In this document: piece by piece, positions 1 through 64,000 of the stretch
Layout: each line of letters starts with the position of its first letter
Numbering within the stretch: the first letter of the stretch is position 1
DNA from: a virus
Taxonomy: Duplodnaviria > Caudoviricetes
Length of the DNA stretch: 64,000 nucleotides
IMG/VR virus record: IMGVR_UViG_2933348407_000001
Coordinates: 1-64,000 of that record
Strand: one strand, 5' to 3'
Made by a program: the position numbers and the translations under genes
The notes under the pieces: model-generated
Databases searched by the model: none
The model's input: the letters and a program-made list of their open reading frames with translations, nothing else
Told to the model about the DNA's origin: nothing

Positions 1-1161
1 GTGAACACTGCCCGCCTGACCCCCGGCATCGCGTTCAAGGACGCCGAGGACGCTGTGTGCGCCGCTGCTGGCGCGATGATCCCGCTGATCTCCGCCACGC
101 TGCGCGCCCAGTTCCCGACCGGTGCGTTCCTGGTCATCGCCCGCAAGGACGGCGATGACGGCCAGTACCTGGCACTGGACTCCGTCCGGGACGACAAGGG
201 CGTTGCGCTGTGCCGGTTCCCCAGCAACCTGGACCGCGCCCGAAAGCTCCCGCCCGTCCCGCTGGAGCTGGCGGTCCTGTGGGGGACGAACCAGCCGCAG
301 CGGCCGAAGGTGATCCTCGAACTCCTCCAGAGGATCGAGGACACCGCCCCGCACGCGTTCATTGACTACCTGCCCGCGGAGTTGCGGACGGCCGCCGAGC
401 AGAAGGCCGAGGACAAGGGCGGGAACTCGCTGCTGGGTATCCCCCTGGTCGACGCTGACCTGCGGTCGCTGCGCGTGCACCGCCCTGGCGAGGACCCGCT
501 CCCCGACGAGCGCTTGCAGGAGATCCGTGCGACGGCCGTGGCGCCGGACGTGCGCGATCTGCTGGGGGAGCTGGACCGCGTCCGCGCGCTGCTGAGCACC
601 ACTCTGGAGGCGAACGGCACGCTCCTCGACAACTGGGCCCGGCTGGAGGGCGTAGCCCCGCACCCGTTCCTCGGTGTGTTCTGCCGGACGTGCCGCTCCG
701 AGGTGCAGGTGGGCACGGAGGGGTGCCCCCGGCACTCGCCCACGGTGATCAGTCGCGCCCTGTACGCGATGCACGCGGAGAACCGGTCGCTCCTCGACGC
801 GGAGGAGGCGGGCAACCGGGCGGTCGCGATGCTGGACACGGCGCTGCCGCTGCTCGCCGCGGTGCTGAACCCGGTGGACCACAGGGAGGGTTGCCGTCCG
901 CACGACTGCCGGTGTGCGTGCGACCGGCGGCAGAACTGCCAGGACTGCCACCGGTGCGTGTGCTGGCGGTCGGAGTGCTGCGCGGAGAAGGCGATTCGGT
1001 GGCACGCCGAGGACCGGTGGGCGCGGCTGGTCGCCGAGGCCGGCCTCGAGCCCGCGGGGTCCGGCTCCGACGCGGAGGGCCCGAAGTGCGCGGTGTGCCT
1101 GACCCCGATCGCCGAGCACGAGGGACGGCACTGCGAGCGCCCGGCCACCCGGAACTGCTGA
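1..1161 (+). CDS. Hypothetical protein with Cys/His-rich C-terminus (may extend upstream of window)
   Basis: 386-aa ORF with high GC3; many CxxC/CxC motifs (CRTC, CRCAC, CQDCHRCVC, CAVC); followed by a GC hairpin. Confidence 0.7.
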   Translation: MNTARLTPGIAFKDAEDAVCAAAGAMIPLISATLRAQFPTGAFLVIARKDGDDGQYLALDSVRDDKGVALCRFPSNLDRARKLPPVPLELAVLWGTNQPQRPKVILELLQRIEDTAPHAFIDYLPAELRTAAEQKAEDKGGNSLLGIPLVDADLRSLRVHRPGEDPLPDERLQEIRATAVAPDVRDLLGELDRVRALLSTTLEANGTLLDNWARLEGVAPHPFLGVFCRTCRSEVQVGTEGCPRHSPTVISRALYAMHAENRSLLDAEEAGNRAVAMLDTALPLLAAVLNPVDHREGCRPHDCRCACDRRQNCQDCHRCVCWRSECCAEKAIRWHAEDRWARLVAEAGLEPAGSGSDAEGPKCAVCLTPIAEHEGRHCERPATRNC

Positions 1162-1285: not shown

Positions 1286-1292
1286 CAGGCGT

Positions 1293-1342
1293 GTTGGTGG
1301 AGAGCAGCCGCCGACAGTCCCGAACGAAGGAACGCCGCAATG
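1293..1342 (+). repeat. Conserved hairpin+RBS leader, copy 1
   Basis: GTTGGTGG-agagcag-CCGCCGAC then AGTCCCGAACGAAGGAAC..ATG; other copies at 25146, 26013, 31075. Confidence 0.8.
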
Positions 1343-2671
1343 AGGACCCTCCCGGCCAAGGTGCAGACCGCCGTCCACGTCGCCACGCTCGCCCGCAAGG
1401 CCGGTCTGCCCATCCCCGCCAAGGTCCTCCCGGTCCTCGAAGAGGCCGCCGCCCCCTGGCCCGCCGAGTGGCTCCTCGCCCCGCTCCCCGGCGACCCGAT
1501 CCGCGTCGTCGAGCTGTTCGCGGGCCCCGGCGGCTGGTCCGAGGGCATCTCCGCCGTCCTCGGCGTGGCCGTCGACTCCTGCGGCGTCGACATCTCCCCG
1601 GACGCCTGCGCCACCGCCCGCGCCGCCGGACACCGCCGCATCTGCGCCGACATCACCACCCTCGACCCCGAGCACATCGCGCTGCGCCACACCGCCGCCG
1701 TCATCATCAGCCCGCCGTGCCCCACCTTCTCCCCGGGCGGCAAGCTCTCCGGCCGGGAGCTGGGCAACATCCAGATCCTCGGCGACGCCATCGCCTACGT
1801 CGGCGAGACCGCCGGGTTCATCCCCATGGACTGGCACCACAGCGACTACGACGACGGCGAGTGCGAGTGCGACCCGGACGCCCCCGACGGCAAGGGATGC
1901 CACGGCGACGGCTTCGCCCCCCGCGCCGGCACCACCTGGGACGAGGTCCGCGAGATGGCTGCGGGCGTCAGTGACCCGCGCATCGCCCTCATGCTCGAGG
2001 TCGCCATCTGGCCGATCGCCCTGCAAGCCGCCGGTGCGCCAATCCGCTGGATGGCCATGGAGCAGTCCAGCAACCTGCCCGAGGAGATCATCAGCGACCT
2101 GACCATCGAGTTCCAGTGCGCCGAGTGGTTCTACACCAGCCACGAGATCAAGGAGGCCGCCGACTACGGCCTGCCGTCCCGCCGCAAGCGCGTCTACATG
2201 ATCGCCTCCCGCTCCTACTCCCCCACCGTCACCCGCTGCATCCGCCCGCTGCCCGCCACCACCATGGCGCAGGCCCTCGGCTGGCAGCCGGGGGAGCGCG
2301 TCAACACCCGCGGCAACCGCCCCACCGACCCGAAGACCGGCCGCGCCAAGGGCGGCAACGCGTTCTCCGCCGACGGCCCGTCCTGGTGCCTCACCGGCAA
2401 GTCCCGCACCTGGAAGCGCGAGAGCGACGGCTACCGCCTCACCGCGGCCGAGGCCGGGCTGCTCGTCGGATTCCGCCGCTCCTACCCGTGGCAGGGAAGC
2501 CGCTCCAGCGCCTTCCAGCAGGCCGCCGACGTCGTCTCCCCCGTCATGGCCGCGATCGTCCTCAGCGGCGTCCTGGGCGGCCTCGCCGAGGCCCTGGTGC
2601 GCGACTACCTCGCCCAGCTCTACGAGATGGACGACATGCTCAGCCCAGACGACTATGACCTAGTCAGCTAG
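1340..2671 (+). CDS. DNA (cytosine-5) methyltransferase
   Basis: Motif I VELFAGPGG, catalytic SPPCPTFS, motif VIII YGLPSRRKRVY, motif IX/X-like LTAAEAGLLVGF...QQAADVV; ATG 1340 after GAAGGA. Confidence 0.9.
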   Translation: MRTLPAKVQTAVHVATLARKAGLPIPAKVLPVLEEAAAPWPAEWLLAPLPGDPIRVVELFAGPGGWSEGISAVLGVAVDSCGVDISPDACATARAAGHRRICADITTLDPEHIALRHTAAVIISPPCPTFSPGGKLSGRELGNIQILGDAIAYVGETAGFIPMDWHHSDYDDGECECDPDAPDGKGCHGDGFAPRAGTTWDEVREMAAGVSDPRIALMLEVAIWPIALQAAGAPIRWMAMEQSSNLPEEIISDLTIEFQCAEWFYTSHEIKEAADYGLPSRRKRVYMIASRSYSPTVTRCIRPLPATTMAQALGWQPGERVNTRGNRPTDPKTGRAKGGNAFSADGPSWCLTGKSRTWKRESDGYRLTAAEAGLLVGFRRSYPWQGSRSSAFQQAADVVSPVMAAIVLSGVLGGLAEALVRDYLAQLYEMDDMLSPDDYDLVS

Positions 2672-7548: not shown

Positions 7549-8613
7549 GTGGCCCTTGAGAGGGACGGCAAGGTCGAGGTCCGCATGGAGCAACTGGCGG
7601 CCTTGATGGGGAACGACCTCCCCGAGGCGGTCCGGAAGGCTCGGGAGATCTACGAGCGGGGCAGGAAGCCGAAGACCGTGCGCGTCCGGCGGTCCTTCGT
7701 GCGGCTGGAGAAGTTCGGCGGGACGGTCGAGAACGAGCGCAAGCCTCTGCCTAGGTCCGAGCGCCCCTTCTCCGCCCAGATGATCACGCCGAAGGGGCTC
7801 AGCCTGAAGCTCTACCTCGTGATGCTGTTCGCGGCGCAGTGCGAGGCAGCAATCGGGAAGGAGTGGCCCCAGCCGTACCCGATCGAGCCGAACACCCAGA
7901 CGACCGACTCGTGGGAGGGGTTGGTAGCGACTGTCGCCAAGTACGCCGGTCCCGGGGTTCAGGCGTCCTCGGTCCGCACGAACAAGCTGAGGCAGATCAC
8001 CCAGGCGATGAAGACGCTGGAGGGGATGGAGCTGCTGAGATCGGCGACCGGGGTCAAGGGTCAGGTCAGCCGCGGCGTCCTGCTCCTGTGCGAGAACGGG
8101 AAGAGCAAGGACACCGGCGCAGCGAGCATCGCGTACACGGTGCCGGCGGATGCCGAGCTCTTCCTGGAGATCCCCGTGGGGTTCTTCACCAACGGCTGGA
8201 TCTACGCGCTCACCAACAGCGAGATCGCCGCCATGTTGATGTGGTTCGACGTCCTGAAGTTCGACGGCATGAAGGTGACGCCGGAGGGCGGGACACCGAT
8301 GATCCTCGGCTTCGTGCTGAGTAACGTGCGCCACGGCTTCTACGGCCTCGGCCGGGACGCGTACGAGACGCACAGGCCGTTGGAGGCCTTCGGGGTGCTT
8401 GAGGTCCACCGCCACTGGAAGCGGTACGACAGCGGCAAGTGGATGGACTTCAAGGAAGAGAGCAGCGACATGGTGTGCCACCGAGTGACGCTCCAGGACG
8501 GCGCCTTCGACAGGGAGGCGGGGGCGGTCGTGCACGAGGTGCTCCGACGGCGTGACGCCACCAACGAGTGGCGGCAGCCCATGAGCGGGTTCCTACAGCC
8601 CGGAAGGCTGTAG
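7549..8613 (+). CDS. Hypothetical protein, possibly winged-helix DNA-binding/replication related
   Basis: 354 aa, GAGGAGG RBS, high GC3; preceded by relatively AT-rich segment 7440-7532; function speculative. Confidence 0.6.
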   Translation: MALERDGKVEVRMEQLAALMGNDLPEAVRKAREIYERGRKPKTVRVRRSFVRLEKFGGTVENERKPLPRSERPFSAQMITPKGLSLKLYLVMLFAAQCEAAIGKEWPQPYPIEPNTQTTDSWEGLVATVAKYAGPGVQASSVRTNKLRQITQAMKTLEGMELLRSATGVKGQVSRGVLLLCENGKSKDTGAASIAYTVPADAELFLEIPVGFFTNGWIYALTNSEIAAMLMWFDVLKFDGMKVTPEGGTPMILGFVLSNVRHGFYGLGRDAYETHRPLEAFGVLEVHRHWKRYDSGKWMDFKEESSDMVCHRVTLQDGAFDREAGAVVHEVLRRRDATNEWRQPMSGFLQPGRL

Positions 8614-8648
8614 AAACCCGCCGCGGCAGAGTGTCACGCGCGCCTGAT

Positions 8649-8679
8649 CGCGACGTAAGCCTCCTCGGCCCCCCATGGT
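8649..8679 (+). promoter_or_regulatory. Element-specific promoter motif, copy 1
   Basis: CGCGAC-gtaagcctcctcggccccc(19)-CATGGT. Confidence 0.65.
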
Positions 8680-8756
8680 CCTTCCTCGCTCCAGCCGTCC
8701 TCCCGCGGCCGCCGTTCCTGGCCGGTCCGACGAGCCGGGGCAGGACGGACGGACCT

Positions 8757-10238
8757 GTGGCGGCAACGAACCTCGCCCCCGCCGGGCAGGAAGCCCTGAT
8801 ACCTGTGGAGGAGCTGACGGGCCCCGAGCCGGTCGTCCACTGCGCGGACGCCCTCGACCACCTTCGGGCCCTCCCCGACGCCTCGGTGGACGCGATCGTG
8901 ACCGATCCGCCGTACGAGCTGGGCTTCCTTGGGAAGGCGTGGGACGCCTCCGGCATCGCCTACAGCGTGGGCATGTGGGCGGAGTGCCTGCGCGTCCTCA
9001 AGCCGGGCGGGCACCTGGCCGCGTTCGGCGCGACCCGCACCTACCACCGCATGGCCGTGGCCGTCGAGGACGCCGGATTCGAGATCCGTGACTCCCTGCA
9101 CTGGCTGTACGGCACCGGCTTCCCCAAGGGACAGGACGTCGGGAAGCTGATCGACCGGCGCCGCGACGACCACCCCGCCCGCCGCCGCTTCACCGCCGAG
9201 TTCGCCGCGCTCCGCGACTCCGTCGGCTGGACGAACCCGCAGATCGACGCCCTGTTCGGCTTCAACGGCATGGCACAGCACTGGACGACACAGAGCAAGA
9301 CCGCCGCCGTCCCGACCGTCGAGCAGTGGGAGCAGTTGAAGGCGGAGATGGGGTTCGAGGCCCCGATCAGCGTCGAGGACCTGGTGCACGAGCTGAACGG
9401 GCGGAAGAACGCGCCCGGGGAGGCGTGGGAGGACCGGGAGGTCATCGGCAAGGGGCACCGAGCCCGGGGCGGTTCCGGGGTGTTCCCGCAGCTCCAGTCC
9501 GACACGTTCGACGTGACCGCACCGGCGACCGTCGAGGCCGCCCGCTGGGACGGCTGGAACACCGCCCTCAAGCCCGGCCATGAGCCGATCGTCCTGGCGC
9601 GGAAGCCGCTCGAGGGCACGGTCGCCTCCAACGTCCTGGCGCACGGCACCGGCGCGATGAATACCGCGGCGTGCAAGACCCCGCCCGGCGACGCCGAGGG
9701 GCGTTGGCCGACCAACGTGCTGCTGTCGCACGCGTGGGCCGTCGACGATGTGGGATGGATCGTTGACGGTTGCGCGGACGGCTGCGCGGAGGGGTGCCCG
9801 GTCGCCGAGCTGGACGGCCAGTCGGGGCGGCTCACCTCCGGGGCGAACCCGCGGCGCCGAGGGTCGGACAAGTTCCGCGACGTGTACGGCGACTTCAAGG
9901 GCCAGACCGCGTGCAAGCCGGTCCGGGGCGCGGACTCCGGCGGCGCCTCCCGCTTCTACCCGGTGTTCCGCTACCAGGCCAAGGCCCCCACCAGTGAGCG
10001 GCCGCGCCTCCCGGACGGCACCGTGCACCCCACGGTGAAGCCGGTCGCGCTCATGCGCTGGTTGGTCCGGCTGCTCACCGCGCCCGGCGGGATCGTCCTG
10101 GACCCGTTCGCCGGTACCGGCACGACACTCGAGGCCGCCCGCCTGGAGGGCTTCGACTCCATGGGCGTGGAGGCCAAGGCCGAGTACGCCGAGCTGTGCC
10201 GCCTCCGGCTGCGCCGCGAGACCGTGAGGAGCAACTGA
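8757..10238 (+). CDS. DNA methyltransferase, N4-C/N6-A beta class, with HTH-like insertion
   Basis: IVTDPPY near N-terminus; HPTVKP and LDPFAGTGTT at C-terminus; insert FAALRDSVGWTNPQIDALFG..AQHW. Confidence 0.9.
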   Translation: MAATNLAPAGQEALIPVEELTGPEPVVHCADALDHLRALPDASVDAIVTDPPYELGFLGKAWDASGIAYSVGMWAECLRVLKPGGHLAAFGATRTYHRMAVAVEDAGFEIRDSLHWLYGTGFPKGQDVGKLIDRRRDDHPARRRFTAEFAALRDSVGWTNPQIDALFGFNGMAQHWTTQSKTAAVPTVEQWEQLKAEMGFEAPISVEDLVHELNGRKNAPGEAWEDREVIGKGHRARGGSGVFPQLQSDTFDVTAPATVEAARWDGWNTALKPGHEPIVLARKPLEGTVASNVLAHGTGAMNTAACKTPPGDAEGRWPTNVLLSHAWAVDDVGWIVDGCADGCAEGCPVAELDGQSGRLTSGANPRRRGSDKFRDVYGDFKGQTACKPVRGADSGGASRFYPVFRYQAKAPTSERPRLPDGTVHPTVKPVALMRWLVRLLTAPGGIVLDPFAGTGTTLEAARLEGFDSMGVEAKAEYAELCRLRLRRETVRSN

Positions 10239-14233: not shown

Positions 14234-14480
14234 GCCCGCAGGTCAGGCCGGGGCCTGATTATCAGGCGCCGGTCACCGGGGCCTGGAAATCCGGCTTCCG
14301 GTGGGACGGGCACCGGTAGTCCGGTCGCCGGTAGATCAGGCGCCTTTAGTAACAAGATCAAGCACCACAATGAAGTAAGAGTTCCGATGCCTTCGCTTCG
14401 CTCAGGCATCGGCGTGCATCGCCTCCGAAGGACCCTCGAAGCGTCCCCAAGCGCAGCAACAGGGCGGCAAGGGGGAGGGG

Positions 14481-14508
14481 TGTCACAGAATCCGGCCGTT
14501 GGCGTTCC
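14481..14508 (+). promoter_or_regulatory. ECF-type promoter, copy 1
   Basis: TGTCAC-agaatccggccgttgg(16)-CGTTCC, 7 nt before ATG 14516. Confidence 0.55.
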
Positions 14509-14515
14509 CCCAGAC

Positions 14516-47606: not shown

Positions 47607-47609
47607 CCA

Positions 47610-47640: not shown

Positions 47641-47647
47641 GCGCGGC

Positions 47648-50774: not shown

Positions 50775-50805
50775 CGCGACGCTAACCACCCGCACTGTGC
50801 ATGGT
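50775..50805 (+). promoter_or_regulatory. Element-specific promoter motif, copy 5
   Basis: CGCGAC-gctaaccacccgcactgtg(19)-CATGGT, 7 nt before ATG 50813. Confidence 0.7.
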
Positions 50806-50812
50806 CCGCGCC

Positions 50813-53800: not shown

Positions 53801-56800
53801 GTCGACAACCCCGACGCCAACGGCATGATCAGCATCGACGGCCGCAGCGGGTACGGCTACGTCGACTACCGGGATCAGACGCACGGGTACGCGGGCCGTC
53901 AGCTCGGATGGACCTGGGGCAAGCAGAGACACAGCCACGGAGACACGGCGTACCCGTCTCGTGCCGCGGCCCTGGCCGCGATGGTTCAGGCGTACGACAA
54001 CGACCCCGACACCCGCGGTGAGCGGACCTGGGGCACCAAGCGCCGCGTATTCGTGCCGAAGATGTTCGTCGAGCTGTACCAGAACGAGCGTCTTCGCGAC
54101 CGGCTCGCCGACGCCAGCGAGGAGCGGCAGTTCCTCTACAGCCTGTTCCGGGACCGGTACGGCTGGGACGACGGCGTGAACCCCCTGGTGCCCAGTAACA
54201 AAAAGGGCCACAACATAAAGGGCCGGAACCTGTGGGTGCCCGAAGGCCTCCTCGCCGAGCTGAACCGGGTGACGGAGGAGCTGTCACGGGACATGTCCGT
54301 GCGGGCCACGGACCGGGACGCGGACAGTTCCGACCGACAGAAGGCCAAGACCCGGCTCGCTTCCATCAACGTGGCTCTGCACGGCATTGAGGCGCAGCGC
54401 GAGTCAGTCCGCAAGAATGGCGGGGACGACGACCGGAAGGTCATCTCCCGCGAGGAGATCGAGGCACAGCAGGCCGCGCTCCGTGCAGCGCTGGGAGGCG
54501 ACGATGACGAACATGTTCAGTCCGATGGTCCGGGATCACTGGAGGACGTACCTGCCCAAGGAGTGGGCGGCGATGACCGATCCGGAGGCGTTCGTCGAGA
54601 CGAAGGCCAGGGAGATCGAGACTCAGATTCTGAAGGCCGAGGAGGCTCTGGAGCAGACAGTTCCGGAGCCGACGGAGTACGAGGAGCAGGTCGGCCGGCA
54701 CAAGCAGATCAGGGCGGACGCAACAGCGATGGTCCTGGCGGAGCTTCTGCCGGAGCCGGAGCCCGGGGCGGAGAAGGCGCCGGAGCAGACGCCAATGGAG
54801 AAGCACCTGCAGGAGATCAGGGACCTGATGTACGACGCGTAGCGCGGTTCCGGCCGGACCCGGCCAACGCGCCCAAGGGCGCCCGCGCGCGTGCGACGGC
54901 CAACGTCGAGGCCATTCGCGTCCTCAAGAAGCTGGAGGCAGAGAACCGGCCGGCCACCGACGAGGAGCGCCGTATCCTCGCCCGCTGGTCCGGCTGGGGA
55001 TCGGTGCCGATCCTCTTCGCCAACGAGCCGAACGAGAAGGAGCCCCGCTACCAGCAGGGCGGTACCCGGTACGGCAAGTTCGCCAAGGACCACGAGCGGT
55101 GGTCCGAGTACAGCGACGTCCGCAGCGAGCTGCAGCGCGTGCTCACGCCGGTGGAGTTCCGGCAGGCATCCCGCGGCGTGCTGTCCATGCACTACACGCC
55201 GCAGCCCATCGCCGAGGCGATGTGGGAGGGCCTTCGGGCGTTCGGCTTTGACCGCGGTGACGTCCTCGAAGCCGGTTCCGGCGCGGGCACGTTCTTCGGC
55301 GTCGCTCCGAACGGTGCCCGTCTGACCGGTGTCGAGCTGGACCCGACCACGGCCCGGATCGCCCAGGCGATCTACCCGCACGCCAATGTCCTGAACGAGT
55401 CCTTCGCGGAGACCGACGTCGGTCCCGGCACCTTTGACGCCGCGATCGGCAACGTCCCCTTCGCCCGGGTCCCGTTCGATGACAAGCGGTACCCGGCGGA
55501 GAGCCTGCACAACGGCTTCGTCACCAAGGAGATCGCCCTCGTCCGGCCCGGCGGCATCACCGCCGTCATCACCTCTCGCCAGACCCTCGACTCCAAGGGC
55601 GACAGGGCCCGCCGCCAGATGGCCAAGTACGGCGACCTGGTCGGCGCCGTCCGCCTGCCCTCCGGCGTCTTCACCGACGCCGGCACCGGGGTCACCACCG
55701 ACGTCCTCGTGTTCCGTCGCCGCGAGGACGGCACCGAGCCGGCTGACCCGTCGTGGCTGGACGCCCCCGAACGGGACATCAACGGCACCGCGCACCACAT
55801 CAACGCCTACTTCGACGAGCACCCCGAGCACATCCTCGGCACGCTGACCACGCAGTCCGGCCCGTACGGGCCCGAGGTGACAGTCAAGGGCGACCCGGCC
55901 AAGGCCGCCGAGCAGCTTCGCGCCGCGCTCGACGACATCGCCGCCAAGGCGAAGGCTGACGGCCGCGGCTACGAGCCGCACCCCGACGGCGACAACCGGC
56001 CTCCGGTGCAGCTCCAGACCGCCCGGGAGAAGCACGCGAACGACTGGACGGGCCGCCTGTACGAGGGCGACGACGGCCAGTTCTACCAGCACGTCAACGG
56101 TGCTGAACCGGTCCTGCTGGAGCCGGCCGACGGCAACACCGCCCAACTTCGTGCCCTCATGCAGCTCCGCGACGTCGCCGCCGAGCTGCGCGAGCTGGAC
56201 CGGAAGAACGACGAGGAGGAGCGCGCCGAGGCCCTGCGCGCCCAACTCCGGGACCTGCACGCCGACTACGTCGCCGAGTACGGGCCCCTGTCCAAGCCGG
56301 GCCAGCACCGCACCAAGGGCGGCCGCCCCACGGCATGGGGCTACTTCCGGGCCGACCCGGACGCCGCGGCCGTCCTCGCCCTGGAACGGTGGGACGCCAG
56401 CAAGGGCGAGCCCGCCCTCTCCCGCGTCTTTACCGAGCGCGCCGCCGCTCGCCGACAGCCGCTCTCCTCGACCAACGACCCGAAGGCGGCCCTGGCCGCG
56501 GTCGTTGCTGCCAAGGGTGAAGTGGACCTCGGCGAGATTGCCCGGCTCCTCGACGTCACCCCGCAGGAGGCGGTGAAGCGCCTCGGCAACGAGGTCTTCA
56601 CCGACCCGGAGACCGGCGGCCTCGAACTGGCCGGCGCCTACCTGTCCGGCGCCGTCCGCGACAAGCTCGATGCCGCCCGCAAGGCCGCCGAGCGCGACCC
56701 GGGGTACGCGGTCAACGTAGCCGCGCTGGAGGCCGTTCAGCCGCCGGACCGCACCATCGGCCAGTTCACCCCGGAGATGGGCGCCCACTGGACGCCCCCG

Positions 56801-59800
56801 GAGCTTCTGCAGGGCTTCCTGCGCGAGTACCTGGGCGACCGCACACTCCGCGTCGCGCACGACGACCGGTACGGCTGGGTTCTCAACACCGGCCGCGTGC
56901 CCGAGGCCAACAACGTCATGTACGGCGTCCCGGCCGTCGAGCCCGACCCGGACAAGGGCATCAAGGGCAACAAGGGCAAGAACGCCGTTGAGATCGCCCG
57001 CGCGATCCTCGGCTTCGGCTCGCTGACCGTCTACGAGGACGACAAGCGCAAGGAAGTCGACGAGGCTACGTCACGTCTGATCCGGCAGAAGGCCGATCAG
57101 ATGCGGGCCGAGTTCGCCAAGTACGCCACGGCGAACGCCGAGCGGCTGAGCGTCCTCACCGACTCGTACAACCGCATCATGAACGGGCACATCGTCCGTT
57201 CGTACGAGGGCATGTCGCCCACGCTCGAGGGCTTCACCCCCGACCGCAACCCGCACGCCTGGCAGCTCGCCGGCGCGGCCCGGATGCAGTTCGAGCGGGG
57301 CGTGATCCTCGCCCACGAGGTGGGCCTCGGCAAGACGTCGACGCTCGTCATGGGCACCCAGGCTCTCAAGGCGTCCGGGCAGATCGAAAAGCCCATGGCC
57401 GTGGTGCCCAACCACGTCTCCAAGCAGTTCTACGACGAGGCCCGACTTCTCTACCCGAACGCCGACATCCACCTGATCACTTCGGCGGACCTGGCCGGCG
57501 ACCGGCGAGGCAGCACGCTGGAGTGGCTGCGCGCGAACAAGCCGGACCTGGTCATCTTCACCGAAGAGGCGTTCGGCTCGATCAAGATGAGCCCGGAGGC
57601 TCAGGACGACTACGAGTTCCGGGAGCTGGAGGCGCTGCGCGAGCAGCTTGACCGCCAGTACGAGGACGCCGACAACCCGAACCACCCGTTCATCGTCGCG
57701 AAGATCGAGCAGCGCATCGCGACGGTCAGCAAGAACATCAACAAGAACGCCGCCCCGATGCGGCGGCCGGGCGAGACGTACTGGGACGACCTCGGGTTCG
57801 ACTACTTCGTCGTCGACGAGGCCCACAGGTACAAGGGCGTCGGCTTCCGCTCCAAGGAGGGAGGCGGCGACCCCGCGTCCATCCGCGGCGTCGACCTGCA
57901 CCAGAAGACGACCGATCTGCACCGCCGCCGCCAGGGCCGGGCCACGATCACGCTCGCCACCGGTACGCCGCTGTCGAACAGCATCAGCGAGCAGTTCACC
58001 ATGCTGATGTTCGCGGCGCCGTGGGTGCTGGACGCCTACAAGGCGGGCGCTCCGGACCTGTGGGCCAACACCTTCGGCCGCAAGACCCTGCGCATCGAGA
58101 ACGCGCCCGACGGCTCCGGCCTGCGCGTCGTGGAGCGGTTCTCCGAGTTCCACAACAAGCGCGCCATGAAGACCATGTGGGGCCTGGTCGCGGACACCAA
58201 GCGCGGTGACGACGTCGGCATTCCCCGCCCGAAGCTCAAGGGCGGCAAGCCGAATCTGATCATGGTCGACGCGACGCCCGACCAGAAGAAGCGCCTCAAG
58301 GGGCTCGTCGCCCGCGGCCGCGCGATCCACAACGGTGAGGTCGACCGCCACCAGGACAACATGCTCGCGGTGTCCAACGAGGGCACCAGCGTGGCCCTCG
58401 ACCCGCGGCTCATCGACGCCAAGGCCCCGGCCGGCAACAAGCTCAAGGCCGTCGCAGACCGGCACATCGAGCGCTACTTCCAGCACAAGGACCGGATCTA
58501 TCCGGTCACCCGCGACAGCCTCGTCGACCACCCCGTCCCGGGCGCCCTCCAGATGATCTTCCTGAACGAAGGCGTCCCGGGAGGCAAGAACAAGGGCAAC
58601 TTCGACGCCTACGCCGAACTCAAGCGGCTCATGGTCGCGGGCGGCATCCCCGCGCACAAGATCGCCTTCGTCCAGGACGCCAAGAAGTCCGGCAAGCCCG
58701 AGGACATGACGGAGCTGTTCCGGAAGGCCCGCGAAGGAGAAATCGCGGTCCTCATCGGCTCCAGCGCCGTCGCGGGTACGGGCATGAACGCCCAGGACCG
58801 CATGATCTCCCTCTCGCACGTCGACCTCGACTGGGGCGCCGCGCAGATGGAACAGCGCAACGGCCGCATCCTGCGCTACGGCAACCTGAACCCCGAAGTC
58901 GAGATCGACATCTACGCGACCAAGGGCTCCATGGACGGCTGGAAGGCCGGATTCGTCGCCGCCAAGGCTGAGGGCCTGGTCGACATCCAGCGGCCCGAGC
59001 CGGAAGACGGCGACTCCAGCGACGTCGTCCAGGAGATCGACGGCGCCGAGTTCGACTACGAGACGATGGAAGCCGAGATCGGCGGCAACCCCTTCATGAG
59101 CCAGCTCATGAAGGCGAAGCGCCGTCTCAAGGACCTGGAGATCGACCAGCACAACGAGGCCGCCGAGCGTATCCGCCGCGCCGAAGCCCTCGATGCGCTG
59201 CGCCAGGAAGCCCAGGCCACCCGCGACGGCATCCAGCGCCGCGAGCAGGCCCTGCCCCGCATCCAGGAGGCCGACGACCGGTTCCGCATGACCATCGGCG
59301 GCTCCCCGTATGGCGAGCGCTCCGACGCTGGCAAGGCCCTGCACCGGCAGATCACCTCCCGCCTCCTCGAGCACAATCGTGAGGGCCTGAGCGACTGGCA
59401 CGTCCTTGGCCAGTTCCGCGGCCTGGACTTCGGTGTCCGCACCGAGAAGACAGCGGACGGCAAGCTCGTCGCGCACGTCGGCTTCCCCGACCTGCGGCAC
59501 TCGGACTTTGAGCGGACCGTGGAGGACCTGCAGAAGAAGGGCGCCGGGGCGGGCATGATCACCCGCCTCGGCAACGCCCTCGACAAGGCGCCCGCGTTGC
59601 AGGAGTCGGACCAGGCCAAGGTTCCGGAACTGGACGAGCAGATAGCCCTGCTCCAGTCCGCACACGCGGCCGCGGACCTCACCCCGCAGATCGACCACGC
59701 TCGCAAGCGGTCGAACCTGCTCGAGGAGATCGTCGCCCGCGTCACCAACCTGGACGCGAAGCCGGAGATCGACCCCGACGAACTCGACAAGGAGCGGTAC

Positions 59801-62800
59801 AAGAACAAGGACGACCGCGAGAAGATCGCCAAGGGGCGGCGCGAGGAACGCGAGCCGCTGCAGGCCGCCGTCGACGAGGCCGTCGCGAACCTGCACCGCT
59901 GGGACGAAGAGAACCCGGCACCCGAACAGGACGACACGGTCCGCCTCTCCGAAGACGAGGTGCGCGAAGCCCTCGCCCGCCTCACCCCGGAGCCCAGCAC
60001 CCCCCCGAAGCCGGGCGCCCCGGAGACCAACAACCGCAGTTCCGCGGATGCCGACACCGACGTCGACGAGCCGAACCCTGACGAGACGGAGGCACCTGAC
60101 ACCACCGGATCAGGCAGCAGCGACGAGCCGCCGGCCGCCGTACCGGCCGAGGGTGACACCGACGCCCAGAACGACGGCCAGGACCAGGACGACGTCGTTC
60201 GCCTCTCCGAGGAAGAGGTGAACGACACCCTCGCCAGCATCCAGCCGGACGCCGACACGACCGGAGGCGACGAGCCGGACGAGCCGCTGCGGTACGCGTG
60301 GGACAAGCCCGAGGACTTCGTCACCCTGACCATGCCGGCTGCACTCGCCGACTTCCTCAACGTCGACGAGACCGCCGCCATGGAGGACCCCGACACCCGA
60401 AAGGCCCTCAAGGAGGCCAAGCCCGGCCGCCGCGGCACACTCCAGGTGACCGGCCCGATCGAGGTACACCGCGCCCTCCTCCAGTGGGCATGGACGCTCG
60501 AGGGCGGCGAAGGACTGGAGTCCGACCCCAGCGATGTCCGGGCCTACAAGGCGTACGCCAAGCGCATCGACGAGGCCGACGCAGACCTGCAGCGCCGTCG
60601 CGCCGAGCGGGAGGCCGCGGCCTCCGCGGACACCGACGAGAACAACACCCCGGACACGGACAACACGAACGACGGCGGCAGCGACGCGCCGCCGGCCGAC
60701 GCCCCCAGCACGGCTGAGCCGGACGGCGAGGACGACCAGGACCAGAGCACCGACGACGACACGGAGGCCAGTGACACCGTCACCCTGACTCCGGATGAGG
60801 TGTCCGACCAGCTCGACGCTGTACGCCCCGAGGGGTCCAAGGCTCCGTCCTCGATGGACGATGGCGAGATCCGCGACGAGATCGTCGACCTGATGGGCCG
60901 TGAGATGGCGGATGAGCTGTCCGGCGCGGACCGTACCCGCCTGCAGGTCCTGGAGGCGGAGGAGGCCCGCCGTGCCGGCCGGGCCCCGAAGCCGGAGCCC
61001 AAGCCGAAGCGGACGACCGAGGAGCCCGGGGGACTCTTCGACGTCGACCAGCCCACCACCCAGCAGCCGAGCAGCGCCGCCGATGTCGACAACCCTGAGG
61101 ACCAGCCCGACGACCTCTTCGGCACGCCGGACATGATCGCCGACGCCGAGGGCCGCAGCACCGAGGGCCTGCGCCCGGCGCGCATGCGCAACGCCGCCGA
61201 CTTGGAGCAGGGCGACCGGTACACCGACGCAGACGGCCGCACGCACACCGTGTCCGAACCGCCGGTCAAGACGCCTCGTGGCCGGACTCGCATCGTCACC
61301 GACGACGGCGAGGAGCGCTTCTACAACGCCGACGCCCAGGTGCGCCTGCGCTACCCGGACGAGGAGATCCCCGACAACGAGACCGACGAGCGGTCCGCCG
61401 ACGACGATGCGGACAACGTCCCGGCCGTCGACGAACCGGAGACCTCCGAGCCGGACGTCGACGGGACTCCCGCCGACGAGCCGGAGTTCACCCCCGACAG
61501 CTACCGCAGCAGCGCCAAGGACCGCGCCGACCGCATGACCGGCCTCATCGACCAGGCCACCGACGGGGCAGGCGGTGACGAGCTGCCCGAGGTCAGCGAG
61601 GTCCGTGATGCGTTGGGCAGGGCCGAGGACTCCGACGACCCGGACGCCGAGCTGCGTTCCGCCGCCGACCGGCTCGACGACCTCGCAGAGATGTATGAGC
61701 TGGGAGGCCCCGACGGAGAGCGCGCCGCAGACCTGTTCCGGCAGGCCGCCCGCATCGCGAGGGGTGAGGACGAGGACGATCGCCGCGGCGACGACGACCG
61801 CAACGAGGACGACAGCGAAGCCCCCGACGCTACGAACCAGGACTCCGAGGAGGACCAGGACGACGACGAGGAACGCCAGCAGCGTCGGAATGGGGACGCG
61901 GACAGCGACGCCGCCGACCCGGACGGTGCCCCCGACGGAGGCGGCGCTGGCACCCCGGCCGCTCCCACCGACGAGGAGGACGAGGACGGCAGCCCCGACG
62001 ATGTGCCCGACAACTCCGACGACGAGCAGGACGAGCCGGAGGCCGAGGAAGACGACGAGCAGGACGACCGTCGCCGACGTCGCCGTCGGCGTCGCCGCAA
62101 CGGCGGTGGCGGCAGCGGCGGCCCCAGCGGGCCCGGCCTGCCGCACCTGAACCTGCCCGACCTCAACACGCCGGACACCGGAGGCGCCGACGGCAACGGG
62201 GATGGCGGAGACGGCCGCGGTACGCGCGACCGCGGGCGGACCCCTGTACGGCACAGCGACGTCAATTCGCTGCGCCGCGCCTGGAAGAACGGCGATGGGC
62301 TCACTCCTGCCGAGGACACTCCGCAGCGGCGCGAGGCCCTGGCACAGGCGGCCGACCGGGACGGCTTGGCTCTGTCTCCGGGCGGGGGCCTGGTGACGTG
62401 GCCCGAACAGCAGGAAGACGGCACCACCCTGTGGCGCTTCGCCCAGGCACGCAACGGCGCCAACCTGACCGGACTGTCCCTGACCACCGAAGACCCCGAA
62501 GAGGCCCGCGCGCTCGCAGGCCGCTTCGAGGAGATCACCGGTCGCGACGGGCAGCCCTTCGACTGGCAGCAGGCGTGGGGCCCGAGCACCGTCGGGCAGT
62601 GGCGCGACGGGGAGGGCCGCAACCTGCAGCGGGCGCTCCAGGCCGTCCTCGACGACTTCGAGCAGCAGCGGGACGCCTCCGCCCAGCCGGAGCCGACGCC
62701 AGAACGGAGGGCGCTGCCAGACGACCTCACCGGCCTCGACGACGACGAGCTGGTCGACGCGTGGAGCAACGACCTCAGCGACGAGGACCAGAAGCGCCTC

Positions 62801-64000
62801 ATGGCGGAGATGGACCGCCGCGACGGCTACACGGACCAGCGCGTTCGTGACGTGCTGCCGGACACCCCGCCAGCCGACGCCGAAGAGGCCGAGCGCCGCG
62901 CAAAGGCCGTCGACGAGGCCCTCGGCTTCGCAGGCGCCGACGTTCCGCGCGTGCGTCGCACCCGTGAGGACATCATCCGTGCGGAGTTCGCCGACTTCGA
63001 CGAGGCCCGCTACCAGGCCGCCATTGCCGCCACGAACGGCTACTTCTACGCCCGGAAGTACAAGTACGGCAGCGGCATCAACGAACGAGAGCTGTTCTCC
63101 GGCGGTGAACTCGCCAAGTTCGGCCGCTGGGAGGAGTACGCCAGCGAGGAACTGAAGGACTGGTACAAGGCCAACGGCGGCCGCATCACGTACAACCAGT
63201 TCCGGCAGACCTACCGGGACAACGACCGCCGAGACCGGCAGCAGTTCGAGGAGGAGCAGCGCCGCCAGGCGGAAGCCGGGCAGACCACGGAGCCCACCAC
63301 CCCGGAGACGGAGCCGTACGACCCGGTCACGCCGCGCTTCGCGGATGAGGCGGCCCTTCGGGATCACATCCGCAGCGGGCAGCTCGACGAGGTGCCCGAA
63401 GACCAGCGTGGAGACGTGCCCTCAGCCGAGGAACGCGCGCAGATCGCCGATGCCGAAAGCACCCAGCTCTCCGACGGCGGCCGACTGCTCATCTACGGCA
63501 ACGAGGCCGGTCGCACCGGCAGCCGCAGCGGGCAGCGGTTCGACGTGGCCCTTCCGGGCAGCATGCAGCCCCTGTTCCGCAGCGGCTTCCACAGCGCCGA
63601 GAAGGCCCGCCAGTACGCCAGCGTCCTCGAGGGCATCAAGGACGCGGACGGCAACCCGTTCCCGTGGGACGCCCCCGACGTCGCCGAGCGCGCCCGCGCG
63701 TTCCGGACCGCCGACGGCAACCGGCTGTTCGACGAGATCACGGAACGCCTGTACGGCTTCAACGACCTCTACGAGCAGTGGAACAGCGACCGCGGCCAGG
63801 CATTGCACCACCGGACGTGGAGCCAGCAGGAAGCCGACTGGAACACCCGCGAGGAGGAAGCCGGCTACTCGATTCCCGTCGACCTGACGGACATTCGCCC
63901 GGGTGACGAAATCAGCTTCCCCGTGGCCACGAGCCGCGGACAGAACACGCGGCCGCAGGACGAGTACGTGGGAACCGTGCACGCTACGGTGACCGGCGAG
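50813..64000 (+). CDS. Giant polyvalent protein (at least 4,396 aa, 3' partial) with DarB-like N6-adenine MTase + SNF2 helicase core
   Basis: Same frame at start, middle and end with no terminated ORF listed in it; WNPALHPRDSKGRF; ANVEAIRVLKKLEAENRPAT..RWSGWG; LEAGSGAG; GNVPF; HEVGLGKT; DEAH; TGTP; QRNGR; alternative start 50801. Confidence 0.9.
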   Translation, partial: MLNRPTAQAESQDLSRDLEVKVTRRPWNPALHPRDSKGRFIETGGVVRTWGGKLARVIRALPHDRILVQDQTGPNEFNGRRHTTSAKWVSMVARPDGSAPTDDEEKVAEEDERRTQDPRRGNGVARDDDGDPDTPNEPHDQDDKGRPIGDDDGDGPDNDDDQDEPEDGAHPVNVDALPNRQHAAGARHKDTAAVRRHFTQLAEQPGTSPDMATFLLSVAHDDDLQTAPSGRLAILRDERNGRFYLTATGTGQRVDAAGDFDTAQDAERFAEHLDKTAVNGQLTKFQQPFDFSDPQLDREARDWRTTRGENIQGAIQRARTEFAGTPAPTATPKTSADNRTDGSGQRFSTLQAARAHWQQRLGQINDLGPDSLREQRAARHLEGLISNDRIKLVGRGQFVVGQDQNGEWYLVATGNGLPLRRRWTSQRGAQAFAESFAENPPMGDDGKPLDLSDPNVRIATWRSEDNRSISEVIDAAAEKFQRENAAGEPPAVTPAPAAVPETPAAPQAPETPEEPQAPALPGNAEPVEGVDGYHYVNDGGSITLYGPDGQVAATSERGYPPQAKIDGVTVPVPQYPKQGAAVMARLHRAAKNPDQRDRITAAWVMKPGKDGKPAKRVMVFRGTIKGDDRDYDAVGSTRAIKWAPSLRAYSTQSNMTEATRDERISEVLSNLARQGRNVHVTDETAAGAPGAPANAVDETEALRKAIANADDARLSQMKYERWGTINRTRSEANRRRLNSEVEMIDDELKRRRKERDEAAARDATSLSDDDIANRIRESQEERGTYGVRKGQEANDVERAIYSERRRRSQALVDDDTDLTTAAEDDLAKARETVAERVRMHQAAGDDPEAERTMRQALQNRHDVIVGEQQRRHAQQIADRPPVVDLTDEELSQEYNDLLRRDFRKAPPEAQQVLEGRMEDVKRERRDREKRAITDRDAPENLSDEDLKEEYTELRRTRSSYTGTDDVKAARKERMAALEAEQNRRDTTPETEQLLARVDNPDANGMISIDGRSGYGYVDYRDQTHGYAGRQLGWTWGKQRHSHGDTAYPSRAAALAAMVQAYDNDPDTRGERTWGTKRRVFVPKMFVELYQNERLRDRLADASEERQFLYSLFRDRYGWDDGVNPLVPSNKKGHNIKGRNLWVPEGLLAELNRVTEELSRDMSVRATDRDADSSDRQKAKTRLASINVALHGIEAQRESVRKNGGDDDRKVISREEIEAQQAALRAALGGDDDEHVQSDGPGSLEDVPAQGVGGDDRSGGVRRDEGQGDRDSDSEGRGGSGADSSGADGVRGAGRPAQADQGGRNSDGPGGASAGAGARGGEGAGADANGEAPAGDQGPDVRRVARFRPDPANAPKGARARATANVEAIRVLKKLEAENRPATDEERRILARWSGWGSVPILFANEPNEKEPRYQQGGTRYGKFAKDHERWSEYSDVRSELQRVLTPVEFRQASRGVLSMHYTPQPIAEAMWEGLRAFGFDRGDVLEAGSGAGTFFGVAPNGARLTGVELDPTTARIAQAIYPHANVLNESFAETDVGPGTFDAAIGNVPFARVPFDDKRYPAESLHNGFVTKEIALVRPGGITAVITSRQTLDSKGDRARRQMAKYGDLVGAVRLPSGVFTDAGTGVTTDVLVFRRREDGTEPADPSWLDAPERDINGTAHHINAYFDEHPEHILGTLTTQSGPYGPEVTVKGDPAKAAEQLRAALDDIAAKAKADGRGYEPHPDGDNRPPVQLQTAREKHANDWTGRLYEGDDGQFYQHVNGAEPVLLEPADGNTAQLRALMQLRDVAAELRELDRKNDEEERAEALRAQLRDLHADYVAEYGPLSKPGQHRTKGGRPTAWGYFRADPDAAAVLALERWDASKGEPALSRVFTERAAARRQPLSSTNDPKAALAAVVAAKGEVDLGEIARLLDVTPQEAVKRLGNEVFTDPETGGLELAGAYLSGAVRDKLDAARKAAERDPGYAVNVAALEAVQPPDRTIGQFTPEMGAHWTPPELLQGFLREYLGDRTLRVAHDDRYGWVLNTGRVPEANNVMYGVPAVEPDPDKGIKGNKGKNAVEIARAILGFGSLTVYEDDKRKEVDEATSRLIRQKADQMRAEFAKYATANAERLSVLTDSYNRIMNGHIVRSYEGMSPTLEGFTPDRNPHAWQLAGAARMQFERGVILAHEVGLGKTSTLVMGTQALKASGQIEKPMAVVPNHVSKQFYDEARLLYPNADIHLITSADLAGDRRGSTLEWLRANKPDLVIFTEEAFGSIKMSPEAQDDYEFRELEALREQLDRQYEDADNPNHPFIVAKIEQRIATVSKNINKNAAPMRRPGETYWDDLGFDYFVVDEAHRYKGVGFRSKEGGGDPASIRGVDLHQKTTDLHRRRQGRATITLATGTPLSNSISEQFTMLMFAAPWVLDAYKAGAPDLWANTFGRKTLRIENAPDGSGLRVVERFSEFHNKRAMKTMWGLVADTKRGDDVGIPRPKLKGGKPNLIMVDATPDQKKRLKGLVARGRAIHNGEVDRHQDNMLAVSNEGTSVALDPRLIDAKAPAGNKLKAVADRHIERYFQHKDRIYPVTRDSLVDHPVPGALQMIFLNEGVPGGKNKGNFDAYAELKRLMVAGGIPAHKIAFVQDAKKSGKPEDMTELFRKAREGEIAVLIGSSAVAGTGMNAQDRMISLSHVDLDWGAAQMEQRNGRILRYGNLNPEVEIDIYATKGSMDGWKAGFVAAKAEGLVDIQRPEPEDGDSSDVVQEIDGAEFDYETMEAEIGGNPFMSQLMKAKRRLKDLEIDQHNEAAERIRRAEALDALRQEAQATRDGIQRREQALPRIQEADDRFRMTIGGSPYGERSDAGKALHRQITSRLLEHNREGLSDWHVLGQFRGLDFGVRTEKTADGKLVAHVGFPDLRHSDFERTVEDLQKKGAGAGMITRLGNALDKAPALQESDQAKVPELDEQIALLQSAHAAADLTPQIDHARKRSNLLEEIVARVTNLDAKPEIDPDELDKERYKNKDDREKIAKGRREEREPLQAAVDEAVANLHRWDEENPAPEQDDTVRLSEDEVREALARLTPEPSTPPKPGAPETNNRSSADADTDVDEPNPDETEAPDTTGSGSSDEPPAAVPAEGDTDAQNDGQDQDDVVRLSEEEVNDTLASIQPDADTTGGDEPDEPLRYAWDKPEDFVTLTMPAALADFLNVDETAAMEDPDTRKALKEAKPGRRGTLQVTGPIEVHRALLQWAWTLEGGEGLESDPSDVRAYKAYAKRIDEADADLQRRRAEREAAASADTDENNTPDTDNTNDGGSDAPPADAPSTAEPDGEDDQDQSTDDDTEASDTVTLTPDEVSDQLDAVRPEGSKAPSSMDDGEIRDEIVDLMGREMADELSGADRTRLQVLEAEEARRAGRAPKPEPKPKRTTEEPGGLFDVDQPTTQQPSSAADVDNPEDQPDDLFGTPDMIADAEGRSTEGLRPARMRNAADLEQGDRYTDADGRTHTVSEPPVKTPRGRTRIVTDDGEERFYNADAQVRLRYPDEEIPDNETDERSADDDADNVPAVDEPETSEPDVDGTPADEPEFTPDSYRSSAKDRADRMTGLIDQATDGAGGDELPEVSEVRDALGRAEDSDDPDAELRSAADRLDDLAEMYELGGPDGERAADLFRQAARIARGEDEDDRRGDDDRNEDDSEAPDATNQDSEEDQDDDEERQQRRNGDADSDAADPDGAPDGGGAGTPAAPTDEEDEDGSPDDVPDNSDDEQDEPEAEEDDEQDDRRRRRRRRRRNGGGGSGGPSGPGLPHLNLPDLNTPDTGGADGNGDGGDGRGTRDRGRTPVRHSDVNSLRRAWKNGDGLTPAEDTPQRREALAQAADRDGLALSPGGGLVTWPEQQEDGTTLWRFAQARNGANLTGLSLTTEDPEEARALAGRFEEITGRDGQPFDWQQAWGPSTVGQWRDGEGRNLQRALQAVLDDFEQQRDASAQPEPTPERRALPDDLTGLDDDELVDAWSNDLSDEDQKRLMAEMDRRDGYTDQRVRDVLPDTPPADAEEAERRAKAVDEALGFAGADVPRVRRTREDIIRAEFADFDEARYQAAIAATNGYFYARKYKYGSGINERELFSGGELAKFGRWEEYASEELKDWYKANGGRITYNQFRQTYRDNDRRDRQQFEEEQRRQAEAGQTTEPTTPETEPYDPVTPRFADEAALRDHIRSGQLDEVPEDQRGDVPSAEERAQIADAESTQLSDGGRLLIYGNEAGRTGSRSGQRFDVALPGSMQPLFRSGFHSAEKARQYASVLEGIKDADGNPFPWDAPDVAERARAFRTADGNRLFDEITERLYGFNDLYEQWNSDRGQALHHRTWSQQEADWNTREEEAGYSIPVDLTDIRPGDEISFPVATSRGQNTRPQDEYVGTVHATVTGE
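54504..54842 (+). CDS. Nested TnpV-like protein (112 aa) in a different frame inside the giant ORF
   Basis: GGAGG RBS + ATG; GC3 bias switches to this frame; HWRTYLPKEWAAMTDPEAF..EYEEQVGRHKQIRADATAMVLAELL. Confidence 0.75.
   Translation: MTNMFSPMVRDHWRTYLPKEWAAMTDPEAFVETKAREIETQILKAEEALEQTVPEPTEYEEQVGRHKQIRADATAMVLAELLPEPEPGAEKAPEQTPMEKHLQEIRDLMYDA

Follow-up and report, generated by a model that had tools for sequence, protein, structure and literature searches.

The 64,000 nucleotides analysed here (the window) are bases 1 to 64,000 of the virus record IMGVR_UViG_2933348407_000001, a single contig of 108,523 bases of which they form the left 59%; the G+C content of the window DNA is about 68%. 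The window is very probably part of a temperate Streptomyces siphovirus of the Gilgamesh type, captured most likely as an integrated provirus with its ends cut at gene edges; the record is a new addition to the Gilgamesh-like lineage. The genes for the terminase large subunit (TerL) and the portal protein are separated by 30,546 nt (TerL end to portal start), and comparison with relatives indicates that this interval is a lineage-wide cargo zone and not an insertion specific to this copy. The initial annotation had described a gap of about 30.5 kb with restriction-modification (R-M), recombinase, translocase and enzyme genes inside, and both its length and its contents were borne out by the coordinates and the family matches. 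Window proteins were annotated using Pfam, PHROGs, NCBIfam and PADLOC.

The assignment to the lineage is based on gene order and identity. When all called proteins were searched by tblastn, the backbone proteins matched phage Gilgamesh in gene order at 41-89% identity, and the same was found against G003, the closest integrated relative (TerL 96%, portal 92%, capsid 95%). Gilgamesh (MN234216 / NC_073461; 129,136 bp; host S. lividans JI 1326) is the closest phage record, with a collinear gene order and identities of 87% for TerL, 74-78% for the portal, 84% for the capsid, 75% for the tape measure and 68% for an FtsK-like protein. Its packaging genes are likewise split three ways, with TerL at base 1, the portal at 29.1 kb and the terminase small subunit (TerS) at 80.6 kb. 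Both genomes have a giant DarB-like gene after the portal, a TerS gene beside a ParB-like gene (TerS lies at 101162-102100 of the record) and a sigma factor. Gilgamesh differs in possessing a ~30-kb ParA arm, in lacking a terminal Xis/Int pair of the record's type, and in having neither the Type ISP R-M enzyme, the NsdA-like regulator nor the enzyme cassette of the record; its FtsK module is oriented in the opposite direction. In the portions of the literature consulted, no publication describing the Gilgamesh-like lineage or its plasmid forms was found, although supplementary lists of phage-plasmid censuses may include those plasmids.

The remaining siphovirus genes lie beyond the window. A first block encodes a prohead protease-NUDIX fusion and an HK97-type capsid protein, and is followed by a tail block (tail tube, tape measure, minor tail proteins and fibre) and a replication arm (AAA/Sak4-like ATPase, DnaC-like loader and a helix-turn-helix initiator-like protein). 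The later genes encode the ParB-like protein and TerS, an endolysin, SSB, the sigma factor (105795-106463), an HTH_17 Xis-like protein and, last, a tyrosine integrase. By family searches, the set of virion, packaging and lysis genes was complete over the whole record, and the capsid and tail genes that had been looked for in the rest of the replicon were all present, the HK97 capsid included.

The separation of TerL from the portal was examined as a family trait by computing TerL-to-portal gaps from the coordinates of search matches. A search of a plasmid collection with the portal and TerL returned seven Streptomyces plasmids of 125-133 kb (CP108533.1, CP109288.1, NZ_CP107934.1, NZ_CP070374.1, NZ_CP108441.1, NZ_CP122459.1 and NZ_CP107821.1) and one 145-kb Thermobispora plasmid. 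The gap measured 27.4 kb in Gilgamesh, 24.8-37.5 kb in the Streptomyces plasmids (7 of 7), 19.0-36.0 kb in the integrated relatives in which TerL was located (5 of 5) and 30.5 kb in this record; in the Thermobispora plasmid, the outgroup, it was 1.0 kb with two small open reading frames (ORFs) inside. Because a split of 19-37.5 kb was seen in all 13 Streptomyces relatives measured, against 1 kb in Thermobispora, the split is a derived trait of the Streptomyces branch and not of this record alone. The contents of the interval vary among relatives. In G003 it holds a lasso-peptide-like set (Asn synthase, transglutaminase plus PqqD, and an ABC transporter), two radical SAM proteins and GluRS; in CP108533 it holds a radical SAM protein and dnaE; and in CP109288 a metalloprotease, an EEP protein, a radical SAM protein and a PIMT. 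The lasso-peptide-like set is located at G003:C19 97177-101773 (locus L022), and an ATP-grasp protein and a LuxR protein were also observed in the G003 interval.

The cargo zone would thus be bounded by TerL on one side and by the two small genes that precede the portal on the other, with TerS at a third locus. Adjacency of the packaging genes would not be needed, since their products meet as proteins. Three kinds of content can be proposed for the zone: an old module of the lineage, which comprises the tyrosine recombinase, RusA, the PNKP phosphatase and, with two envelope proteins, the FtsK-type pump; an enzyme cassette headed by DUF6415 that differs in each relative; and defence cargo of probably recent arrival (the Type ISP R-M enzyme and the DUF3644-like gene).

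The lifestyle of this copy was judged from its right arm and its ends. The place of Gilgamesh's ParA arm is occupied by an Xis/Int pair that is orthologous and syntenic to that of 10 integrated prophages. The terminal integrase matched 11 loci in Streptomyces chromosomal contigs, one of which is 7.46 Mb long, and at 10 of these (L009-L018) the upstream 10 kb was collinear with the last 11 kb of the record, from the DnaC-like gene to Xis/Int. No element sequence followed the integrase at the 10 collinear loci, and the portal gene was found in every one of the 10 genomes. In G003, a perfect 24-bp direct repeat occurs 510 nt past the integrase and again ~123 kb upstream (G003:C19 58528-58551 and 181864-181887); this 24-mer also lies past the integrase in a second genome (L012 11989-12012), and six genomes share conserved DNA beyond the integrase. 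These relatives are att-flanked prophages integrated at a common site, and the 24-mer is a candidate for the integrative subgroup's att core.

The first bases of the record are a start codon and its last are the stop codon of the integrase gene; the att core, which lies 0.5-0.8 kb past the integrase in relatives, is absent from the record. Ends at gene edges and an absent att core mean that sequence is missing at the ends, as expected of a trimmed provirus. G003 and Gilgamesh extend ~18 kb further to the left of the record's first gene, with genes that include a queuine tRNA-ribosyltransferase-like and a PAPS-reductase-like gene, so that the record is possibly truncated on this side. The likely source run, with 11 million letters of the size of an isolate, contains every word sampled from the record's right end; one of its contigs agrees with the record at 0 differences and runs on for a further 6,449 nt, at a depth of 58-65 compared with 60-69 in other contigs of the run. 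The last 47 nt of the record had 0 exact matches in the genome contigs searched. ParA had no family match in the record, and Gilgamesh ParA searched against the whole record gave a best tblastn E value of 1.4; of a partition system of ParA plus partner, only the ParB-like domain protein beside TerS is present. These features make an integrated provirus cut at gene edges the most likely state of this copy, and its existence as a plasmid is unlikely.

The relatives show that both states occur on one backbone. The three records opened from the plasmid search were circular. The seven Streptomyces plasmids are deposited as closed extrachromosomal replicons and share with the record the portal (52-86%), TerL (79-87%), the giant gene, the capsid, the recombinase and the DUF6415 cassette; an FtsK-like gene is present in six of the seven, and a Gilgamesh-type ParA in three. 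They differ in being closed replicons, the record having Xis/Int instead. The phage-plasmid character put forward in the initial annotation consequently fits the kin and probably not this copy, which lacks ParA and ends in Xis/Int as the 10 integrated prophages do. Members of the family would change lifestyle by exchanging a ParA-bearing arm, found in circular plasmids and in Gilgamesh, for the Xis/Int pair of chromosomal prophages. Other phage families are known to exchange integration modules for partition modules in this way.

Features of the window, and of the leader copies beyond it, are collected in the Table.

Table. Coordinates of annotated genes and leader copies; positions are those of the record, which coincide with those of the window up to 64,000.
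Feature	Position	Strand	Evidence or remark
Leader copy 1, outside the TerL-portal interval; hairpin, GTCCCGAACGAAGGA and ATG 1340	1286..1348	+	66.3 bits; before C5 methyltransferase
C-5 cytosine DNA methyltransferase	1340..2671	+	PF00145 3.6e-16; 60% to Gilgamesh gp137 region
N6/N4 DNA methyltransferase	8568..10238	+	PF01555 1.6e-28; 84% to CP108533
Conserved gene upstream of TerL, function unassigned	14387..15217	+	tblastn to Gilgamesh, CP108533, G003; GC3 frame
Terminase large subunit, 598 aa	15658..17454	+	phrog_2 8.6e-19; 87% Gilgamesh gp1; 96% G003
Type ISP single-polypeptide R-M enzyme, cargo	17617..22518	+	PF13156, PF04851, PF22240, PF18135; PADLOC REase_MTase_IIG 2286 bits
Tyrosine recombinase, ortholog of Gilgamesh gp32	22604..23776	-	PF00589
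DUF3644/HEC-08-like candidate defence protein	23934..25040	-	PADLOC 5.9e-24
Leader copy 2	25137..25198	+	66.4 bits; before 63-aa ORF
63-aa ORF	25190-25381	+	follows leader copy 2
Leader copy 3	26006..26066	+	67.4 bits; orthologous leader before Gilgamesh gp24
Gene behind leader copy 3	26056-26967	+	Gilgamesh ortholog gp24
RusA-like Holliday junction resolvase	27183..27830	+	phrog_34 5.3e-9; 63% Gilgamesh gp23
PNKP-type HAD phosphatase	29818..30441	+	PF25109 5e-19
Leader copy 4	31067..31127	+	74.4 bits; orthologous leader before Gilgamesh gp10 (FtsK)
FtsK/SpoIIIE-type double-stranded DNA (dsDNA) translocase	31188..33194	+	PF01580; NF041214 52.1 bits vs cut-off 800
Small protein with two transmembrane (TM) segments, behind translocase	33176..33502	+	70% to CP108533
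Lipoprotein-like protein behind translocase	33597..34052	+	66% CP108533; 62% Gilgamesh gp8
GGACT-like cyclotransferase and GNAT acetyltransferase, cargo	34105..35185	-	PF06094, PF00583
NsdA-family TPR-like regulator	35182..36525	-	NF053720 265.9 bits, cut-off 75
DUF6415 protein at head of variable enzyme cassette	37739..38245	+	PF19979 2.2e-18
Enzyme cassette	38445..47037	+	EEP (two), TauD-type dioxygenase, NDP-sugar dehydrogenase fusion, 461-aa protein of unassigned function, GT4 glycosyltransferase
Two small genes always preceding portal, the second a 3-TM protein	47097..48001	+	comparison with Gilgamesh, G003, CP108533
Portal-MuF fusion	48001..50463	+	PF04860 1.3e-41, PF04233, phrog_2662 1.1e-82; 78% Gilgamesh gp46
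DarB-like giant protein, methyltransferase and helicase core	50801..64000	+	phrog_10089 9.2e-270
Leader copy beyond window	95594-95654	-	
Weaker leader matches beyond window	97383-97451, 100364-100399	-	

Copies of a sequence word, GTCCCGAASGAAGGA, connect the interval with the backbone. With at most two mismatches, it occurs four times in the window (1317, 25167, 26035 and 31096, all on the + strand), compared with a chance expectation of 0.47, and four copies were reached in 0 of 100 shuffles. One copy lies outside the TerL-portal interval and three inside, and a fifth is found beyond the window at 95611(-), before the AAA-ATPase gene. The word belongs to a leader in which a 6-bp covarying hairpin with the conserved loop (A)GAGCA is followed by the ribosome-binding site GTCCCGAACGAAGGA, ~7 nt and the start codon. 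In an alignment of 17 leader copies from three elements, compensatory changes were found in five of the six pairs of the hairpin; hairpin cells were paired in 92.2% of cases versus 65.3% in shuffles (0/500), and the covariation score was 0.685 versus 0.171 (0/500), with far lower values in slid controls. A covariance model derived from this alignment recovered Gilgamesh copies that had not been used for training, before the FtsK-like gp10 (E 2.5e-6), gp24 (7.6e-7) and the AAA-ATPase gp77 (1.3e-6), which are the orthologs of three leader-bearing genes of the record. The leader is also present in G003 (10 copies) and CP108533 (at least 2), and the copies at orthologous Gilgamesh genes are weaker. 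Rfam gave no family at threshold in the window or in three loci that together span record positions 68-108.5 kb, and the leader is a candidate new structured RNA. Since genes of the module and of the backbone (the C5 methyltransferase and the AAA-ATPase) share it, they probably form one regulon, and the leader-bearing genes would be expressed together.

A promoter- or operator-like word, AGTCTCATTGCTGYACTAT, was found at 1217-1232(+) and 1267-1285 of the window and at 95680-95698 and 100525-100543 of the record, as an inverted pair before the C5 methyltransferase and as single copies before replication-arm genes, ~10 nt upstream of the leader hairpin. Leader and promoter motifs had both been said to occur inside and outside the interval; this holds for the leader, but AGTCTCATTGCTGYACTAT is confined to the outside. 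It may be the target of the phage's own sigma factor. At leader copy 4, a 20-codon upstream ORF (31119-31181) starts at the leader ATG and stops two codons short of the GTG at which the FtsK-like gene begins, in the same frame, an arrangement that could reflect translational coupling or control. Before the AAA-ATPase gene, a 400-600 nt non-coding stretch contains a dense array of at least eight copies of GCGCGCCA / AGGCGCGC (93250-93850 of the record); this iteron-like array possibly serves as an origin or as a set of operators.

The translocase was characterised by sequence and by structure prediction. Its motor (Walker A GGTDMGKSG, Walker B LVVDE) has EccC, TcpA and FtsK as the closest solved relatives by sequence, and the best fold match was the E. 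coli FtsK motor 2ius (E 1.2e-16, target TM score 0.60). The AlphaFold (AF2) model, with a mean confidence (pLDDT) of 74, shows four to five long N-terminal helices of moderate hydrophobicity, a Pro/Gly linker that is disordered, and a winged-helix-like domain at the C terminus (H-H-H-E-E at residues 581-642, pLDDT 76-87). Hydrophobic N-terminal helices, a motor and a C-terminal winged helix make up the architecture of FtsK and TraB, and in TraB the winged helix reads 8-bp repeats of the clt locus. As modelled, the protein is most likely a membrane-anchored, sequence-reading dsDNA pump, which would move the DNA of the element itself across septa or from one hyphal compartment to another. The 2-TM and lipoprotein-like proteins are conserved behind it and had no family match in Pfam, PHROGs or NCBIfam.

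How this pump is used admits more than one explanation. The initial annotation took it for traB, and a phage-plasmid maintained outside the chromosome, and dispersed by virions as well as by dsDNA conjugation of the TraB type, would be consistent with its modelled architecture, the two envelope proteins behind it, the seven plasmid relatives (six with the gene), a longest contig of 124-139 kb in 26 of the 113 clusters of homologs, and the rank of plasmid_TraB (NF041214) as the best NCBIfam match. The labels traB and spd are interpretations, however. For traB, the match covers model positions 149-406 of 639, which is the motor only, and falls far short of the curated cut-off (Table), the name TraB was on none of the 113 clusters, and classical Tra proteins of Streptomyces plasmids align over about half of the length at ~25-27% identity. 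The pump resembles Streptomyces TraB in its motor and its predicted winged-helix-like domain, but it differs in its phage context, instead of a plasmid or an actinomycete integrative and conjugative element (AICE), and in the lack of clt-like arrays: near the gene, no stretch of 300 bp was found with at least 4 identical 8-mers or at least 5 identical 7-mers. FtsK-like genes were also found by tblastn in 92 Streptomyces phage records, and their presence in other isolated Streptomyces phages is reported in the literature. With the missing ParA and the terminal Xis/Int, shared with the 10 integrated kin, added to these points, conjugation by an extrachromosomal copy is improbable. A role in maintenance, in which the pump and a Xer-like recombinase resolve multimers and clear DNA from sporulation septa and cross-walls with no intercellular transfer, is unlikely but deserves more weight. 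The recombinase matches XerC/XerD alone in NCBIfam, weakly, and homologs of it are encoded in 54 plasmid records of Streptomyces; by fold, the pump is most similar to a chromosomal FtsK; and the FtsK-like gene is commoner in plasmid-state kin (6/7) than in integrated kin (3/10). Set against this are the absence of an identified dif- or lox-like site, the distance of 7.4 kb between the two genes on opposite strands, the absence of the pump from one plasmid, and the FtsK-like genes of other Streptomyces phages, in which the presence of a recombinase was left unchecked. The GGAAGTCCA repeats found next to the recombinase have no conserved counterpart beside that gene in Gilgamesh or CP108533 and were dropped.

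The origin of the module and of the whole layout was weighed in the same manner. The segment from the recombinase to the FtsK-like gene (22.6-34.1 kb) could be imagined as an independent AICE that landed inside a prophage, as it is ~11.5 kb long, has an integrase-family gene at one end and the FtsK-like gene with small membrane proteins at the other, and is inverted relative to other family members. Att-flanked boundaries were looked for, and the segment borders gave neither att-like direct repeats nor clean inverted repeats, only chance-like matches of 70-84% (70-80% for the direct repeats); no Rep or Xis family match was found inside the segment in Pfam, PHROGs or NCBIfam. The module is present in Gilgamesh, six of the seven plasmids and three of the 10 integrated relatives, between TerL and the portal wherever TerL was located (Gilgamesh and the six plasmids) and 17-31 kb upstream of the portal in the three prophages. 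Its identity to CP108533 (FtsK 84%, g28 79%, recombinase 75%) tracks that of the backbone (TerL 85%, portal 86%), and its genes bear the phage's own leader, also at the orthologous Gilgamesh sites. Module divergence in step with the backbone and a common leader support one co-evolved element, as the initial annotation had argued in preference to a simple insertion, and make a landed AICE very improbable. The inversion itself predates the split from G003, because the module remnants of G003 are oriented as in the record; the pump and recombinase genes were afterwards lost from G003. That the record is a decayed remnant of a prophage, or a phage-plasmid chimera made in assembly, is more improbable still: the packaging genes are unusually scattered, non-phage cargo is abundant and the record is cut at gene edges, but every structural gene is full length, 58-96% identical to kin and in conserved order, this order recurs in an isolated phage, closed circular plasmids and 10 chromosomes, and the contigs of the source run match with 0 differences.

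Several points weigh against the preferred interpretation, that of a trimmed provirus of a lineage with a co-evolved cargo zone. Genes were called by a third-position GC (GC3) heuristic and no trained gene finder. The record's flanks were unseen, integration being deduced from kin and from the way the record was cut, and a low-copy plasmid would yield equal read depth. The module is inverted in the record relative to 10 of 10 other FtsK-bearing elements, which indicates rearrangement in the zone. The pump gene is missing from seven of 10 integrated relatives and one of seven plasmids; it is therefore dispensable, and its role is unreadable from conservation alone. For the regulon, the shared motif is the evidence.

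Known phage-plasmid systems offer partial parallels. In the portions of the reports consulted, conjugal plasmid-phages were already described in Streptomyces, namely pZL12 (Zhong et al. 2010, J Bacteriol) and its relative pSLE1. No 90-kb record of the pZL12 type rose above weak, partial matches in the portal and FtsK searches, the pZL12 sequence itself being uncompared. Like coliphage P1, the lineage is temperate, has a plasmid state (here in the plasmid-state kin) and encodes a tyrosine recombinase and a DarB-like giant protein with methyltransferase and helicase domains. Unlike P1, the record represents an HK97-capsid siphovirus with no P1-type RepA/ParAB and no identified lox site, and its giant protein of 5680 aa is encoded directly after the portal. 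The P1 analogy of the initial annotation is thus a loose one, retained for the giant protein and the recombinase and not for replication, partition or a lox-like site.

The giant gene continues past the window to 67843 of the record. Its phrog_10089 match (899.9 bits) covers residues 1182-3043, and outside the methyltransferase/helicase core Pfam gave no match in the N-terminal 1500 aa or in the C-terminal 2680 aa; by this core, the protein would fit the DarB-like family of virion antirestriction proteins. A palindrome based on TTGCACAATTG was observed before the giant gene (50724-50741) and again ~290 nt after it (68132-68149 of the record), at the start of the next called gene. The 11-mer CAGCGCGCGAC occurs at 50770, 71120, 78556 and 84449, where it precedes late genes (the giant gene and the capsid gene) and follows the tail-tube gene and a minor-tail gene; both words are candidate late-gene signals. 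The prohead serine protease and the NUDIX hydrolase domain are joined in one chain (69095-71014 of the record, beyond the window), and this fusion is kept in Gilgamesh, where it is annotated 'hydrolase', and in CP108533.

Among the other genes of the window, the TerL ORF spans 14821-17454, and the gene start was set by homology to relatives and an ATG. The first 1-14 kb hold the two DNA methyltransferases and small cargo genes. The Type ISP enzyme combines Mrr-like nuclease, helicase, coupler and methyltransferase/specificity domains in one chain and had no match in Gilgamesh, G003 or CP108533; the enzyme cassette had no counterpart in the same three genomes. Lower-GC cargo of a defence-like kind includes, besides the Type ISP enzyme and the DUF3644-like gene, two genes outside the interval, for a metallophosphoesterase (3125-4672(-)) with weak likeness to the DS9 antiphage phosphoesterase and a DUF5677 protein (11991-13109). 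These two, the Type ISP enzyme and the DUF3644-like gene had no ortholog in Gilgamesh or G003, and of the four only the last had a weak match in CP108533 (32%). The DUF6415 family also precedes the portal in CP108533, CP109288 and G003. NsdA in Streptomyces is a repressor of sporulation and antibiotic production, and the phage-borne member of its family may serve to manipulate the host.

No tRNA gene was found in the 64-kb window. In seven integrated relatives (L009, L011 and L014-L018; ~3.1-3.5 kb in each), a tRNA-Arg (gcg) lies between the replication arm and the ParB-like/TerS genes, and the corresponding place in the record is outside the window, at ~100.4 kb. A distant FtsK-like gene (31% identity) was seen in host DNA a few kb past the prophage integrase at two loci (L015 16168-16737 and L019 14932-15501), where it may belong to a neighbouring AICE.

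A broader proposal can be formulated in which a widespread family of Gilgamesh-like Streptomyces phages of ~110-135 kb alternates between plasmid and prophage, the membrane-anchored pump and its two envelope proteins spread the genome without virions, and all early and maintenance genes, the pump among them, form a regulon controlled by the new RNA leader. As a whole this is speculative and rather unlikely; if true, one replicon would have two routes of horizontal transfer, by virions and by pump-driven spread within a mycelium or from one to another. Good leads come from the cargo bay, the swap of lifestyle arms, the pump trio and the covarying leader, none of them surprising in kind. The leader is a concrete, testable one, and the pump trio is a testable lead on virion-free DNA movement by phages of mycelial bacteria. 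The odd genome layout is explained without a chimera, the gap being a stable family trait that serves as a cargo bay, which across relatives houses defence genes, a DNA pump, regulators and small biosynthetic clusters, of which that of one prophage is lasso-peptide-like. With one backbone shared by an isolated phage, closed circular plasmids and chromosomal prophages, and a lifestyle arm swapped between them, the Gilgamesh-like family is a convenient natural system for studying how temperate Streptomyces phages change their mode of inheritance.

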